Virus record (IMG/VR): IMGVR_UViG_648276662_000018
Source of the DNA: a virus
Taxonomy: Duplodnaviria; Heunggongvirae; Uroviricota; Caudoviricetes
DNA: 7,135 nucleotides
Direction: 5' to 3' (one strand)
Made by a program: the position numbers and the translations under genes. The notes under the pieces were generated by a model. That model worked only from the letters and a program-made list of their open reading frames with translations. It searched no databases and was not told the DNA's origin. Shown here in pieces: positions 117 to 6,267 of this stretch (its first letter is position 1; every line of letters begins with the position of its first letter).

Positions 117-1289
117 TCAGTCCTTATGGTGGAAATAATCACTCAGCCGGGAAAACATGCTGCCTTCCCCGACAGATTCCAGGGTAACCAGCGGCCAGTG
201 CGCCACCTGTTTATCACGGTCGTAAAGTTCAATTTCCCCTACCCGCTGATGGGCGCTAATTGGCGCGGTGAGTTCTTTACCATCAAGGGTATATTTGGCT
301 TTGATATGTGGAATTTCGGCTTTCGGTAGCACCATCCAGAACTCTTGTTCCGTTCCCAGGGCGATATTTTCTTTATCGCCATACCAGATGCGTTCCGTAC
401 CAACCTTTTTCCCACGGTGCAAAATTTGCACCGTAGTAAAGTTTTGTTGACCCCAACGCAGTAATTTTCTTGCCTCTTCCTCACGACCTTTTGCGCTGTC
501 AGCCCCCATTACCACTGCAATGAGACGACGCTGCCCATCTACAGCCGAAGCAATGAGATTAAACCCGGCACCAGAAGTATGACCCGTTTTCAGGCCGTCA
601 ACATTCATGGTTTTATCCCACAATAACCCGTTACGGTTTTGCTGGGTGATACCGTTCCAGGTGAGGCTTTTCTCACTGTACATATGATAAAACTCGGGCT
701 CGCCGTGGATGATAGCGCGAGAAAGCACAGCTAAATCATAAGCCGAGCTATGCTGGCCAGGTGCATCCAGACCATGCACTGTTTCAAAATGCGTATCCTT
801 GAGATGCAGCTTCTCGGCATAGTTGTTCATCATTTCAACAAACTGCCGTTGCCCACCGGCAATATAGTCAGCCAGTGCAACACAAGCGTCATTTCCGGAA
901 TCCACAATTAAACCACGGCTTAAATCACGTACCGATACGCGATCGCCCTCTTTCAAAAACATCAGTGAAGAACCGACAAACACCGGATTATCTTTCGCCC
1001 ACGCATCACGCCCCACGGTGACAATATCGTCTGGCGTAATGCGATGACTATCGATAGCGCGATCCACGACATAGCCCGTCATCAGCTTTGTCAGGCTGGC
1101 GGGATTGCGCTGTTGATGCTCATTACCCGCGGTGAGAATCTGACCGGTGGTGTAATCCATCAATACCCAGGACCCGGCATGAATCTCTGGAGGTTGAGGT
1201 GAAAAAGGAATGTTTTCCGCCGCAAAACCAGACGATAAATTAAAAACGAACAAAGAAGCAGCAATAATAAGACGGCGTTTCAACAGCAA
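117..1289 (-). CDS. dacD: D-alanyl-D-alanine carboxypeptidase, penicillin-binding protein 6b (DacD)
   Basis: 390-aa ORF with N-terminal signal peptide (MLLKRRLIIAASLFVFNLSSGFA) and the three PBP active-site motifs SxxK (SLTK), SxN (SGN) and KTG (KTGHT). Sequence recognised as E. coli DacD. Apparent TTG start at 1287-1289 preceded by GAGGG; stop TGA at 117-119. Confidence 0.93.
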   Translation of the reverse strand: MLLKRRLIIAASLFVFNLSSGFAAENIPFSPQPPEIHAGSWVLMDYTTGQILTAGNEHQQRNPASLTKLMTGYVVDRAIDSHRITPDDIVTVGRDAWAKDNPVFVGSSLMFLKEGDRVSVRDLSRGLIVDSGNDACVALADYIAGGQRQFVEMMNNYAEKLHLKDTHFETVHGLDAPGQHSSAYDLAVLSRAIIHGEPEFYHMYSEKSLTWNGITQQNRNGLLWDKTMNVDGLKTGHTSGAGFNLIASAVDGQRRLIAVVMGADSAKGREEEARKLLRWGQQNFTTVQILHRGKKVGTERIWYGDKENIALGTEQEFWMVLPKAEIPHIKAKYTLDGKELTAPISAHQRVGEIELYDRDKQVAHWPLVTLESVGEGSMFSRLSDYFHHKD

Positions 1290-1974: not shown

Positions 1975-4662
1975 CTATTCCACAACATCATCTTCTATCA
2001 ATTCAGCCTTATTTAGTTGTTCCTTAAGCTTATTCCATGCAGAATCCTCAGGCATCTGTACTCGCACAGAAACGAATTGATTAGCAGGAATGTCGATCGG
2101 GTCACCGTTCGAAACACCAGGGATGTCGTTACGTGCAAAAACTGGCGAGTTATCGTGAGTGCGGTGAAACGTTTTCACCAACACAGATCCATCTTGGTTA
2201 ACAACATAATCCAGCCAGATGAGCGGCTGCTTGTTTCGGTCCTGCGGTATTTCAAATCCACCATCAATCCCCCCCCATGAAGCATCTGCATTCAGACCTA
2301 CGCAACCCTCAATCAGATATTCCCCCAATGCCAGCCGTGTGACGGTTACCCCATCTGATTCGCGATTTGTTTCACTACTACCGTCTGAGAAAATCTTCAC
2401 AACCGGAGAGGCTTTTTTGATGAAACCACTTGAATCGACGGTCGTGTTCAGCGACGACCATGCCTCAGCCCAGCCTGTGTTACCTGCGCGAATAGCATCG
2501 TCTGCGTAGCGGAAGAACAGTTTTGATGTTGTGGACATGAATATCTGCAACACACGGTTTTTTGCATATCCTGACTCCCATAATGCTCCGTTACCTGTTC
2601 CTTCTGGCTGCCAGTTTGTCACCCCACCTGCAGCTCCTATACTTACACCAGTAGACCAGTCTCCAGCAAATTCTGGAAGATTTAGTGAGTTAGGTGAGCG
2701 AATTGATACATCAACCAGACCAGGGGATCCGAGAATCGACATGCTGCGGGAGGACACCTTAGTAAAAGAGTTGTACCCGCCGTTTTTGGAAATCCTTCCT
2801 GTATAATTATTAGCCCTGTTAGTTCCATTAACTGTAATTTCCCAGGTATCGCCGTTGATGAAGTCGATCTGCAATAGGCAGAATGCTGGCAGCGTCATCT
2901 GTCCTGGCGCAGATGGCCCACCTTCAAACAGTGGCATATCCTGTTCAAGATATGTCACATATCTACCTGCATCTGTATTCCGCAAATAGTCACAAATAGC
3001 CTGTGCCGATGTAAATAGCGCAATACCATCAGCCGGGTTTACAGGGTGACGGCCAGCGTTAATCACCCTTCCGCGAGGGTTAAATAACTGTGATGAGGCA
3101 TTGGATAGCGGAGTCATGTCTACTGTTCCAGGTTCATTAGATGGACAGTTAGCGCGAATGATGTTTAAAGTCCTATAATTTGATCCGCCCCCATTGTCAT
3201 AGCGAATAGACTGTAGAAGATACAATTCCTCAGAGCCAGAAATATCACAAGACTGCACCCCCTCATTTTCAGTGGAGTAAACACTCTTCCCTGAATAACT
3301 ATCCCAGTATGTTTTGAAATCTGCAGGTGACAGCAGGTACTGACCTAATTCTGAACCATTAAGGCTGTACTCAATATAACCCTGCAACCCTGCGAAAGTA
3401 TTTCCAGATCCCGCCGTGGTAGATGCACCAATACCAGCAAATATCCGTTGAGAACCAAGAGCGACACCCTGCCGTTTTGGTTTACCGGCTCCGCGACCTC
3501 CAACATTTGCATCAACCGTAATAGTCCCCATTGGACTGTAAGATCCTTCTATAAGGCTGTTAATATCCAGTGTGTTAAAGATATTGGATACACCTGTCTC
3601 AACATCAAAAATTTTCGGCCAACCCATATCCGCATTTTCGTATATCAGGGTATTACCAAAGCCACTAAACTGATATCGCACTCCAAGGCGTGTTGATTCA
3701 GTGAAGTTTGTAATCTGCGTTTTATCAACCAGTGTACGCGGATCTTCGATAGGGTAAATTCTGATAGTGCGAGATGGGCTGTACGGCAGCAGGATGTAAC
3801 GCTGTCCTGCCACTCGGTAAACGTGGATGCCTTCTGGTGCACCAACGTTATTCGGAAAATGAAGACGTGTTACCAATGCTCCTGTTACCCAGTCATGCAC
3901 CGTAACCCATACCGATGCGGGGTCTAGCGTCTGCCAGCCGATGTATACCATTCCATCATTGCTGTCTATGTAAATCCCCTGAAATCCCATGGTCGTGTAA
4001 CCATACTGATCTTTAAGATCTGCGGTAATCTCATCGTCTATGATGCTGAATTCTAATTTCCAGTTCAGCGGCCTACGCGTACCACTGACATGCCTGGAAA
4101 TATGAGACAGGTAGCTTTTAACCCCGCCTGCGATAATGTATCTATGTTTGATCTCAGTAACAATTCCAGTTGCAACTGGAGTGCATTTATAGACGCCGCC
4201 GTTTATTCTAATAAAATTGGTTCCTGTTAGATTATCCCCAATGGCAACGTCTTTTCTACTATTCTTAAACGTCCCATTACCTAAGTCAGTAACAAGCAAT
4301 GCCCCTTCTACATATTTCAATGACTGATCAGGGTCATACTTCAGCACATTAGGAAAATAGAACTGCTGTGTACCATACGCATCATAAACAGCCATAGAAT
4401 GGCCTTGCACGGTAACGAATTTGGCAATCTGTCCGTTATATACTGGATACCCTGCGGCATTGATGACGATTGGCTGTGCAACAGGAACGTGAGAGCCGTC
4501 TTCGTTTTCCACATAAACCTGAATCTGGTTTTCTGGATTTACAGGATCAGTGTCAATTTTACCGATATAAATTTTGCCATTGGCTACGGCTTTAAAAGAA
4601 CGCGCCATAGTGAAGAGTTGCGAAGGCATCGATACGATCACATTGGCTGTAATGTCTGTCAT
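1975..4662 (-). CDS. Phage tailspike protein: P22 gp9-type N-terminal head-binding domain fused to a divergent receptor-binding/enzymatic body
   Basis: 895-aa ORF. The first ~115 aa ([11 protein letters not shown]...[26 protein letters not shown]...ENEDGSHV...[13 protein letters not shown]...NVLKYDPDQ) closely match the P22 tailspike head-binding domain as recalled. ATG at 4660-4662 with GGAG 9 nt upstream; stop TAG at 1975-1977. Confidence 0.9.
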
Positions 4663-4862: not shown

Positions 4863-5786
4863 TTAAAGTTTAATTGAGTGGCACGCTCTATCACGTATCG
4901 CTGCGAATGAAGCTATCTCTTTAAGTGCCCAGCTTTGCTCAGCAATTAAATGGCGAAGTGCTTTTAGCTCGGCTCTTACTGCTGAAACGTCATACCCCGC
5001 TTTTGTCAGAATATCGATTAGTTTATACGCCGGACTGCATTCAACGAGTGCGCTGCGGTCAAGAGCAACAGTATCACCGCATTGCTGCCTGATAATGGCG
5101 TAAGGTGCATTTTCAGAAAACCATGAAATCGGGAAGTTAATATCCAGTTTTGGCGCTGGTAACTCTTCTTGCTTGCCAATGAACTCACCTTCAAGCGGAA
5201 CTCGAGCTGCAAGTGACAGTGCTTCGGTAAACTGCTCCTCACTGATTTCTTTATATGAACATCCAAAATGGGATTTCAGTGACGACCACATGGTGATCAT
5301 CGCCTTAGCCTGTTTTTCTTTTGGCAGAGACTGACCGCGACTCATGACGAGTTGTTTAATGGCTTCCTGCTGTTCAGTGGTAATTTTACCCGGCAACGCC
5401 TTTTTAGCTTTGCGTGGGTTAACTACATGACCTTTAGTCCAGTACTCGTAGAGCACATCGTCACACTCTTCCTGATACTGGATTACCTTGTCGCGGATTT
5501 CAGGGCGGACTTTGTTTGGCTGAATGCTTGAAAGCCAAGCCGCAAACTTACGAAAGGCAAGGCATATCATTAACTGTTTACCGCCAGCAGAAGGTATTTC
5601 GATTTCCGAAATACCTTTGACAAATCTCTGTTTTAATTTAACAAATTGAGCAGCCCAAACCATACCCATGCCTTCTACAACGGGTTTCATAGGAACGTAA
5701 GGTTCATTGTTAATGCTGACCAAAAAGAGATTTGTTCCGTGGAATGGAACGTTGATTGTATGTTCTGCAATTGCTACACTCGTCAT
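4863..5786 (-). CDS. ant: Phage antirepressor (Ant-like)
   Basis: 307-aa ORF immediately downstream of arc in the same orientation and upstream of the tailspike, matching P22 immI synteny and the size of P22 Ant (~300 aa). AGGAA about 9 nt upstream of ATG 5784-5786. Assignment rests on synteny and size, not on recalled sequence. Confidence 0.75.
   Translation of the reverse strand: MTSVAIAEHTINVPFHGTNLFLVSINNEPYVPMKPVVEGMGMVWAAQFVKLKQRFVKGISEIEIPSAGGKQLMICLAFRKFAAWLSSIQPNKVRPEIRDKVIQYQEECDDVLYEYWTKGHVVNPRKAKKALPGKITTEQQEAIKQLVMSRGQSLPKEKQAKAMITMWSSLKSHFGCSYKEISEEQFTEALSLAARVPLEGEFIGKQEELPAPKLDINFPISWFSENAPYAIIRQQCGDTVALDRSALVECSPAYKLIDILTKAGYDVSAVRAELKALRHLIAEQSWALKEIASFAAIRDRACHSIKL
5752..5780 (+). 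promoter_or_regulatory. Candidate promoter for a sar-like antisense RNA (within the first codons of ant, opposite strand)
   Basis: Plus strand: TTGATT (5752-5757), 17-bp spacer, TACACT (5775-5780). Predicted start ~5787, directly opposite the ant start codon and ribosome-binding site. Confidence 0.35.
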
Positions 5787-5858
5787 GTCGTTAATTCCTA
5801 TGCGTGGTTTTACGATACCGAAGCCCTGACTGTTCCCGCAGTTGGGGCTTCAACTTTC
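5787..5858 (+). ncRNA. Candidate sar-like small antisense RNA covering the ant ribosome-binding site
   Basis: Predicted ~70-nt plus-strand transcript ending at a 13-bp hairpin (5820-5832 paired with 5839-5851, 6-nt loop) followed by AACUUUCU. The stem contains two G-U wobble pairs that would be C-A mismatches on the minus-strand RNA, so the structure is favoured on the plus strand. P22 is known to make a ~68-nt antisense RNA (sar) at this position. Confidence 0.4.
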
Positions 5859-6053
5859 TGATCTATCAGTTATATCTTTCCCTTCATATACTTCACCTAT
5901 ATTGCTAATGCTGGCAGAACATCCAAGATGCTTGTATCTTATGATGTCCAACACGCAGTCACTACACAGCATCCGACCTGTTTCTTTAGAGTAAATGTAT
6001 GTTTGATCAGCGTCTGATTCGCTAATGCCGCAGAAACAACATTCTTTACTCAT
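5850..6053 (-). CDS. Small Cys-rich protein (putative zinc-ribbon), unknown function, inserted between arc and ant
   Basis: 67-aa ORF with CCxC near the N-terminus and CxxC about 21 residues later. Its ATG overlaps the arc stop as ATGA (6050-6053), indicating translational coupling; GAGGGGG lies ~9 nt upstream. P22 has no gene between arc and ant (as recalled). Confidence 0.6.
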   Translation of the reverse strand: MSKECCFCGISESDADQTYIYSKETGRMLCSDCVLDIIRYKHLGCSASISNIGEVYEGKDITDRSES

Positions 6054-6202
6054 ACCATTACCCCCTCTCTCTTCAAGCTGTCTATCAGGCGCTTGATAAC
6101 CTCTGAGTTAAACGACCTGCACTCTTCCTTTGCCCTGCTACCTATAGCATCCTTTAACGACTGCGGCATCCTTACCAAAATCTTACTTATTTCTTTCTCC
6201 AT
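6050..6202 (-). CDS. arc: Arc-like ribbon-helix-helix transcriptional repressor
   Basis: 50-aa product MEKEISKILVRMPQSLKDAIGSRAKEECRSFNSEVIKRLIDSLKREGVMV aligns with P22 Arc (R-P, GRSxNSE, KKEG pattern). Start set at ATG 6200-6202 with GGAGGG 6 nt upstream; the longer ORF beginning at 6238 has no ribosome-binding site. Confidence 0.85.
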   Translation of the reverse strand: MEKEISKILVRMPQSLKDAIGSRAKEECRSFNSEVIKRLIDSLKREGVMV

Positions 6203-6238
6203 GTTACCCTCCACACAAACAACTCTTTTCGAATACAA

Positions 6239-6267
6239 AAGATAGCAAAGTGAGTATATCTAGTCAA
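6239..6267 (-). promoter_or_regulatory. Candidate Pant-like promoter for the arc operon
   Basis: Minus strand: TTGACT (plus 6262-6267), 17-bp spacer, TATCTT (plus 6239-6244), about 40 nt upstream of the arc start. The -10 overlaps the left arm of the inverted repeat below. Confidence 0.45.

Follow-up and report, generated by a model that had tools for sequence, protein, structure and literature searches.

The window, that is, the whole stretch of 7,135 nt analysed here (IMG/VR virus record IMGVR_UViG_648276662_000018; Caudoviricetes), is the right end of a P22-like (Lederbergvirus-type) Escherichia coli prophage adjoining dacD, and its region 5780-6260 was 100% identical to the chromosome of E. 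coli MS 21-1. It holds a complete immI region, because Pfam matches for mnt, arc and ant were found together with a full-length sar antisense RNA (Rfam) and a Pant-like promoter. This promoter faced the divergently transcribed mnt, as in the immI region of P22, and the sar RNA pairs with the leader and ribosome-binding site of ant. Between arc and ant was located an open reading frame (ORF) of 67 codons, the subject of this report. A first-pass annotation, made from the sequence without database searches, had described it as a cysteine-rich cargo gene coupled to arc and wedged between two genes that follow each other directly in P22; these statements are borne out by the results below.

A middle cistron between arc and ant

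The product predicted for the 67-codon ORF was MSKECCFCGISESDADQTYIYSKETGRMLCSDCVLDIIRYKHLGCSASISNIGEVYEGKDITDRSES, with the cysteine pattern C5-C6-x-C8 ... C30-x2-C33, i.e., CxxC-x21-CxxC. The stop codon TGA of arc (6050-6052) and the ATG of the ORF (6051-6053) overlapped as ATGA, downstream of a Shine-Dalgarno-like sequence lying in the 3' end of arc (Table 1). At the other end, the stop codon TGA had two bases in common with the sar terminator hairpin, and ant began 63 nt downstream. The arc gene, annotated by RefSeq as a 153-bp coding sequence in the identical locus of MS 21-1, ended in ...SLKREGVMV, like every cargo-bearing arc allele examined; the 67-aa ORF was left unannotated by RefSeq in MS 21-1 and in many other E. 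coli genomes.

The ORF matched phrog_7150 end to end and was intact in 18 of the 125 sar-bearing loci surveyed (see below). An intact copy sharing 98.5% identity was present in phage CUS-3, which is apparently without arc according to the literature (PMC2629481). Contrary to that view, both arc and the 67-aa ORF were present and intact in CUS-3 (CP000711.1, locus L001, 3798-4204), where they are unannotated and lie within a feature named "bsq2; boundary sequence"; the arc product possessed the 46-aa core MKVKTLRMPEKLEK...REGVMV.

The family found in large protein collections was small, comprising near-identical 67-aa alleles, a 68-aa Salmonella subfamily (P0013 and P0018) and a 63-aa subfamily (P0017, P0019 and P0020), the subfamilies, from Salmonella and E. 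coli, sharing 26% to 38% identity with the 67-aa ORF. Residues C5, C6, F7, C8, G9, S22, K23, T25, C30, C33 and I37 were invariant across the family alignment, while residues 45-67 were poorly conserved between subfamilies. In all members for which the genomic context was fetched, the gene was situated between an Arc-family gene, which it overlapped by 4 nt, and an antirepressor gene. An exhaustive HMMER search of 1.84 billion representatives yielded one true homologue of 68 aa, P0013; the remaining matches were mostly multi-repeat Ig-domain proteins (e.g., P0007 and P0010) and were rejected as spurious. The ORF is almost certainly a genuine middle cistron of a Pant operon consisting of arc, the ORF and ant, because the ATGA coupling and the Shine-Dalgarno-like sequence coincide with a full-length phrog match, intact copies in CUS-3 and in the 18 loci, and conservation of the cysteines and the surrounding motif.

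Two unusual arrangements were noted among the relatives. A 112-aa product from a Logan contig (P0001) was an Arc-ZBD fusion (...SLKRGGDGMSKECCFCG...; ZBD, zinc-binding domain, see below) seen in one assembly, presumably caused by a frameshift at the ATGA junction that may be real or an assembly error. In the metagenome contig Ga0121632_100771 (L132, 2331-3729), a more distant immI-like operon with a Rap1a-domain gene on the mnt side, a 63-aa relative overlapped arc and ant by 4 nt each and no sar spacer was present. In the window itself, an antisense ORF at 5842-5994 (+) was judged to be a by-product of DNA conservation.

Table 1 Features of the window (positions in nt of the 7,135-nt stretch)
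Feature	Position	Strand	Evidence or remark
dacD	117-1289	-	
Tailspike gene with P22 head-binding domain	1975-4662	-	
ant, third cistron, antirepressor of 307 aa	4863-5786	-	Pfam P22_AR_N, E 7e-40; phrog_524 and phrog_245, anti-repressor Ant
Candidate Psar promoter, TTGATT-17-TACACT	5752-5780		Within the first codons of ant; read from sequence, 8/12 consensus matches, under the scan threshold
sar antisense RNA, full length	5788-5855	+	Rfam RF00262, 84.6 bits (gathering score 43), E 2.8e-17
sar terminator hairpin	5820-5851	+	3' boundary of the cassette slot
67-codon ORF, second cistron	5850-6053	-	phrog_7150, E 1e-49; conserved family
ORF residues 45-67, predicted disordered tail	5853-5921	-	Model confidence (pLDDT) <50; alignment diverges past column 45
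ORF residues 1-44, probable ClpX-type C4 ZBD (C5, C8, C30, C33)	5922-6053	-	Predicted beta-hairpin followed by helix
arc, first Pant cistron, ribbon-helix-helix repressor of 50 aa	6050-6202	-	Pfam Arc, E 8.5e-12
Shine-Dalgarno-like GAGGGGG	6061-6067	-	Within the 3' end of arc, 7 nt upstream of the ORF ATG
Pant-like sigma-70 promoter, TTGACT-17-TATCTT with TG	6239-6267	-	Upstream of arc; consensus scan 9/12; putative function
mnt, divergent repressor of Pant, 82 aa	6317-6565	+	Pfam Arc and FitA-like RHH
ClpP-like gene, 178 aa	6565-7101	+	

Resemblance to the ClpX zinc-binding domain

The first-pass annotation had held that no function could be assigned to the ORF from its sequence and had proposed profile comparison and structure prediction. 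This proved too pessimistic, as these comparisons placed residues 1-44 in the fold of the ClpX-type ZBD, of which they very probably constitute a diverged, stand-alone version with a putative treble-clef fold. The assignment was made because sequence profiles, curated labels and a predicted model pointed to the same domain. Family profiles of 4 to 7 members searched against PDB gave residues 5-45 of ClpX (6vfs_E) as the sole significant match, with E-values of 0.008 and 0.0065. Comparison by hhalign with an alignment of ClpX ZBDs gave a probability of 92.1% (E 6.2e-7) over 43 columns with the four cysteines in register, C5, C8, C30 and C33 of the ORF product corresponding to C14, C17, C36 and C39 of ClpX. 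One protein family, phrog_5259, was matched by the ORF (E 6.7e-5), by the E. coli ClpX ZBD (5e-6) and by a canonical ClpX-type protein occupying the same position in other loci (1.2e-7; see below), and the homologue P0018 is labelled "ClpX-type ZB domain-containing protein" in UniRef. In addition, the spacing C5-x2-C8-x21-C30-x2-C33, with the knuckles CCFCG and LCSDCV, agreed with the ClpX-type cysteine pattern CxxC-x(18-19)-CxxC.

AlphaFold2 (AF2) gave a poor model from the single sequence, with a predicted local distance difference test (pLDDT) score of 57, and a usable N-terminal domain was obtained only with a 7-sequence alignment. In the latter model, residues 1-44, with a pLDDT of about 80, formed a beta-hairpin followed by a helix starting from the second CxxC, while the tail scored below 50. 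When this model was searched with Foldseek, the E. coli ClpX ZBD (2ds5_A) ranked second, with a root-mean-square deviation of 2.0 Å over 43 of 43 target residues and a TM score of 0.66. The invariant F7 aligned with F16 of ClpX, and Y40, replaced by L or F in relatives, with I46. These two ClpX residues mark a hydrophobic patch through which lambda O, SspB, RssB and trigger factor are bound (PMC7804408). The protein is nevertheless not a ClpX, since the AAA+ module was absent from its 67 residues, of which 45-67 were predicted to be disordered, and the next gene is ant.

Other folds were considered and rejected. A RING finger (C3HC4, eight ligands) did not fit, as four cysteines at ligand positions plus C6 were conserved and neither a conserved histidine nor a second site was found. 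The RING of RNF4, matched by phmmer against PDB with E-values of 0.005 to 0.4, was regarded as cysteine-pattern noise because the cysteines were aligned to ligands of separate RING zinc sites and the match was lost with the family profile (E 8). As for the C4 finger of DksA/TraR, there was no Pfam match at E ≤ 10, the finger was N-terminal, and no coiled coil was predicted.

Some results weigh against reading the ORF as a genuine gene for a ClpX-type ZBD. Pfam zf-C4_ClpX (PF06689, gathering threshold 27 bits) did not match the 67-aa protein at E ≤ 10; every E-value returned by Foldseek exceeded 0.1, with RING halves scoring alike; and the copy in a lambdoid prophage of O157:H7 was frameshifted by one additional T in a T-run at codon 7, making it a pseudogene there. 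Scans of the 67-aa protein against the whole of Pfam and against NCBIfam likewise gave no family up to E 10, and the 63-aa relative reached E 0.2 (12 bits) with zf-C4_ClpX.

The frameshift bears on the explanation that the ORF is non-functional or decaying and kept only because the DNA is young, which would also fit the near-identity of the 67-aa alleles and the lack of annotation by both PGAP and the CUS-3 authors. This seems extremely unlikely, since the ligand cysteines, the motif residues and the coupling to arc have been kept at 26% to 38% identity, and since the gene has a strong Shine-Dalgarno sequence and its product a coherent predicted fold. Moreover, frameshifting was confined to the O157:H7 lineage; absence or disruption in all close relatives, which the first-pass annotation had set against its own proposal, was not seen. 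In O157:H7 F3113 (L006, 1626-3281), a complete ant-arc-mnt module was located between lambdoid genes for minor tail protein L and a K-like C40 peptidase, and about 300 complete E. coli genomes showed a match of the O157:H7 type at 80% to 90% identity.

The arc-sar cassette slot

In the literature, this region of P22-type phages is a hypervariable "ant moron" (PMC2629481). A search of IMG/VR using the sar hairpin as query led to a comparison of 125 loci, among them the window itself and reference loci. Arc ended directly at the hairpin without cargo in 72 of them, including the P22-type arc, ending in ...KKEGRIGA 4 nt before the hairpin, in agreement with the P22 gene order given by the first-pass annotation. 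The 67-aa gene occupied this position in 18 loci and its 63-aa relative in one, whereas the other occupants were a 60-aa canonical zf-C4_ClpX protein (3 loci: L004, L040 and L063), a 74-aa C4 protein (CDFC...CNKC) that is only possibly ZBD-like (3 loci), a 73-aa ORF (MRFIEVDEIG..., phrog_11805; 11 loci), a 57-aa ORF (phrog_17642; 6 loci) and an 89-aa predicted membrane ORF (phrog_27312; 4 loci); for the 7 loci left, either another ORF was recorded or no ORF reaching 35 codons could be called at the hairpin. Cargo was thus present in about 46 of the 125 loci (approximately 37%), and at least seven small ORFs without relationship to one another, all of unknown function, serve as such cargo.

The arc-sar interval is a recombinational cassette slot. 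Its 5' boundary is the conserved 3' end of arc (...SLKREGxxV with the 4-nt start/stop overlap) and its 3' boundary the sar terminator hairpin. The cargo overlapped the arc stop codon by 4 nt in all eight cargo-bearing loci examined, which represented every cargo type, and the TGA fused to the hairpin was the stop codon of all cargo ORFs in the survey. Cargos reassorted independently of the arc and ant alleles, as expected of the cargo gene that the first-pass annotation had proposed. For example, CUS-3 shared 99% identity with the window in the cargo, but 79% in the 3' end of arc, 63% in the 5' end of ant and 48% in the promoter region; L026 was 99% to 100% identical in the sar and ant regions, yet contained the 73-aa cargo; and arc and promoter regions 93% to 99% identical were accompanied by the canonical ZBD in L004 and by the membrane ORF in L003. 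The 67-aa type showed only three amino-acid variants, so that the ratio of nonsynonymous to synonymous substitution rates (dN/dS) was uninformative. No description of an internal arc-sar cassette site was found in the literature searched.

The 60-aa slot protein (WP_047668240.1; L004, 2537-2719) matched Pfam zf-C4_ClpX (E 7.6e-11) and the ClpX ZBD structure 1ovx (E 1.7e-7) and shared 48% identity with the ZBD of E. coli ClpX (CSFCGKPQHE...ICSGCV); its sequence suggests a fragment captured from a host clpX gene. At least two lineages of ZBD are therefore present in one slot, and a third is only possible, since homology of the 74-aa C4 cargo to the ZBD could not be demonstrated, with 8% to 16% probability in hhalign and a Pfam match (E 0.0015) that covered the second knuckle only.

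Outside the slot, on the mnt-distal side of the ant moron, the cargo of relatives resembled toxin-antitoxin or defence genes and encoded a protein with a Panacea domain, pairs like HicA/HicB and the toxin YafO along with a partner (L004, 3675-4124; L127, 1383-1919; L131 and L133, about 959-1962).

The position of the gene raises the question of whether its product is a specific partner of Ant, that is, a zinc finger that binds Ant or the repressor targeted by Ant and tunes antirepression as a chaperone, inhibitor or specificity factor, with no link to ClpX. Every family member examined was directly upstream of an antirepressor gene, even at 26% to 38% identity, and in L132 the ZBD stop codon overlaps the start of ant by 4 nt. 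However, the 67-aa allele was paired with at least five N-terminal alleles of ant, of both P22_AR_N and Bro-N antirepressors, and remained 99% identical in CUS-3, where the 5' end of ant has diverged to 63%. Furthermore, 72 of the 125 operons lack any cargo, unrelated cargos substitute for it, and the flanks of the cassette alone can account for the conserved position. We consider a partner of this kind unlikely; as to the broader idea of an Ant co-factor, raised in the first-pass annotation, conserved position beside ant stands against pairing with every ant allele, and the comparison neither favours it nor rules against it.

Pant of P22 fires immediately on infection, and the first-pass annotation had noted that phages place anti-restriction or anti-defence genes under such promoters. 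The ORF could accordingly be a generic early anti-defence or anti-restriction moron with a target unrelated to ClpXP. Points in its favour are the many different small ORFs of unknown function for which the slot is a hot spot, the Panacea, HicAB and YafO cargo on the mnt side of the ant moron in relatives, and the high divergence of the subfamilies between conserved flanks. On the other hand, the protein showed no likeness to any characterised anti-defence protein, the ClpX ZBD being the sole homology detectable. PADLOC-DB, a library of defence and not anti-defence proteins, gave no match at E ≤ 0.1 for the ORF, ant, the ClpP-like gene next to mnt or three other slot cargos. A generic role is thus distinctly unlikely, and by analogy with T7 gp4.5, T4 PinA and lambda RexB the anti-defence reading would survive only in the form of blocking a host protease.

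Another explanation is suggested by the hairpin. As the ORF ends inside the sar-complementary hairpin, ribosomes terminating there reach the ant leader, and the product might be a nucleic-acid-binding zinc ribbon regulating its own operon, through the duplex of the ant leader with sar or through operator DNA, or the ORF might be a leader whose translation is what matters. Binding to nucleic acids is common among small C4 zinc ribbons, and in the immI operon of phages P1 and P7, which is controlled by an antisense RNA, the small ORF icd overlaps ant and is needed for its translation. Both cases place a small ORF just before an antirepressor gene within an immI operon under antisense-RNA control, but icd overlaps ant while the 67-aa ORF is 63 nt away, and most related operons do without such an ORF; homology is not expected. 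The protein sequence, and not just the length of the ORF, was conserved across diverged subfamilies, the P22-type arc ends at the same place and so makes an additional ORF unnecessary, and the best homology was to a protein-binding domain. Regulation of this kind is therefore improbable.

A possible link to ClpXP and comparison with known systems

The explanation tentatively favoured here is that the middle cistron supplies a free ClpX-type ZBD that would act on recognition by ClpXP. The link to ClpX is drawn because a near-host-like zf-C4_ClpX protein occupies the same slot elsewhere and because the positions equivalent to F16 and I46 have been kept. The N-domain of ClpX is a dimeric hub at which the adaptors SspB, RssB and trigger factor dock, as do the N-domain-dependent substrates lambda O and MuA (PMC7804408). 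The narrower proposal that the ORF product is a mimic or decoy of this domain is the most plausible of the mechanisms considered, though doubtful. When Pant fires, either early in infection or upon loss of Mnt, a burst of free ZBD would be produced until Arc closes the promoter. The free ZBD could titrate adaptors or substrates that depend on the ClpX ZBD, or heterodimerise with ClpX N-domains, so that a phage or host protein would be shielded transiently from ClpXP; antitoxins whose degradation triggers abortive infection may be one such target. Binding of the predicted patch to the XB tail of SspB, RssB, lambda O and MuA is suggested by positional conservation only (F7 and Y40). A ClpX degron at the N-terminus of Ant (MKSIAKA, resembling N-motif-1 of Dps and lambda O) was also considered and was dropped, as the ZBD cargo was paired with all N-terminal alleles of ant.

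The gene adjacent to mnt also pointed to ClpXP. It started at the mnt stop codon (TAATG), co-transcription with mnt in the lysogen being probable, and its product, a truncated ClpP, was a full-length homologue of ClpP1 of P. plecoglossicida (PDB 9uxt, E 1.6e-35). That ClpP1 has a Ser-His-Pro triad and is a ClpP truncated at the N-terminus; it assembles with canonical ClpP into hetero-tetradecamers and enhances degradation that depends on ClpX (PMC12900304). By analogy, the presence of such a gene beside mnt suggests that the prophage may remodel host ClpP. The window thus contains two ClpXP-related genes in opposed operons, one under Pmnt (lysogen) and one under Pant (early lytic).

It was considered whether the 67-aa protein is a partner of the ClpP1-like protease, the two forming a phage-specific proteolytic module. 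Both genes are in the window, and a ClpP1-like gene was present in four of the five Salmonella P0018 loci shown. Nevertheless, 15 of the 21 distinct ZBD haplotypes lacked a ClpP1-like gene, and it was found in 6 of 21 ZBD haplotypes versus 5 of 15 with other cargo (Fisher p = 1.0; p = 0.08 versus all other haplotypes); a specific linkage of the ClpP1-like gene with ZBD cargo was rejected on these counts. In addition, CUS-3 has the ORF without a ClpP1-like gene, the operons are opposed, and delivery of substrates requires an AAA+ ring, which the ZBD lacks. Such a module is highly improbable.

Of the features elsewhere in the window, the tailspike gene encoded the P22 head-binding N-domain and a C-terminal Phage_tail_C_2 domain, and its central receptor-binding part had no match to a Pfam family. 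About 690 bp at 1290-1975, between the prophage genes and dacD, were non-coding or uncertain. No tRNA gene was found in the window, which rules out a tRNA inside it as the attachment site. Homologues of mnt in related loci carried the Repressor_Mnt family.

The gene family is catalogued but uncharacterised. Neither a study nor a characterised relative of such a phage ZBD protein was found in the literature searched (ClpX ZBD, antirepressor, P22-like immI and phage ClpX inhibitors), and, judging by this literature, it is new that such a fold is assigned, that the arc-sar interval has a cassette architecture and that ClpX-ZBD mimics recur in an antirepressor operon. To our knowledge, no natural free-standing competitor of the ClpX N-domain has been characterised. 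This domain is a well-studied hub for the selection of adaptors and substrates. The small, easily cloned ORF, together with the finding of at least two ZBD lineages in one sharply delimited slot, makes the hypothesis of phage mimicry of a ClpX docking domain directly testable. The P22-type ant moron picture is likewise refined, the arc-sar interval being a cassette site for at least seven interchangeable small genes.

A wider generalisation, that temperate phages repeatedly capture the ClpX docking domain as a free decoy in the Pant operon and, together with a ClpP1-like subunit, form a two-state controller of ClpXP, is unlikely. If true, recognition dependent on the ClpX N-domain would be inhibited or re-programmed in trans by these natural decoys; replication proteins like lambda O, or Ant, might be protected, or antitoxins might be kept stable so that abortive infection triggered by ClpXP fails; and in this prophage a truncated ClpP1-like subunit expressed in the lysogen would remodel host ClpP and be paired with the decoy. 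If the decoy idea is wrong, the ORF would be an ordinary uncharacterised phage moron of known fold.

Phage proteins that block host proteases are represented by T7 gp4.5 and T4 PinA, which act on Lon, and lambda RexB, which acts on ClpP (PMC10286901). The principle proposed for the ORF is the same, a small phage protein blunting a host protease and stabilising phage proteins or antitoxins, but there is no kinship in sequence or fold, its activity is hypothetical, and docking-domain mimicry, the route proposed for it, is not described for gp4.5, PinA or RexB. Compared with P22 immI, the window has the same divergent mnt and arc-ant genes, Arc and Mnt ribbon-helix-helix repressors, a P22_AR_N antirepressor and a full-length sar, whereas in P22 arc is followed directly by the sar/ant leader and here a 204-nt cistron intervenes; the arc alleles also differ, being of the ...SLKREGxxV type here and ...KKEGRIGA in P22. 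The 60-aa canonical ZBD protein shares with the 67-aa ORF its position, the 4-nt overlap with arc, the stop codon fused to the sar hairpin and the nature of a stand-alone ZBD, but the two are about 29% identical over 31 aa (BLASTP E 0.024), the 67-aa ORF representing a much more diverged lineage. Relative to the N-terminal ZBD of ClpX (PF06689; 1OVX, 2DS5-2DS8), the ORF product differs in being a stand-alone protein of 67 aa with an inter-knuckle loop 3 residues longer, an additional invariant C6 and a disordered tail, in being encoded in a phage antirepressor operon and not with clpP, and in that its zinc binding and dimerisation are putative. The two nevertheless resemble each other in a C4 site with C-x-F-C-G and I/L-C-x-x-C-V knuckles, in the predicted beta-hairpin and helix topology of the model, and in hydrophobic residues kept at the positions of F16 and I46.

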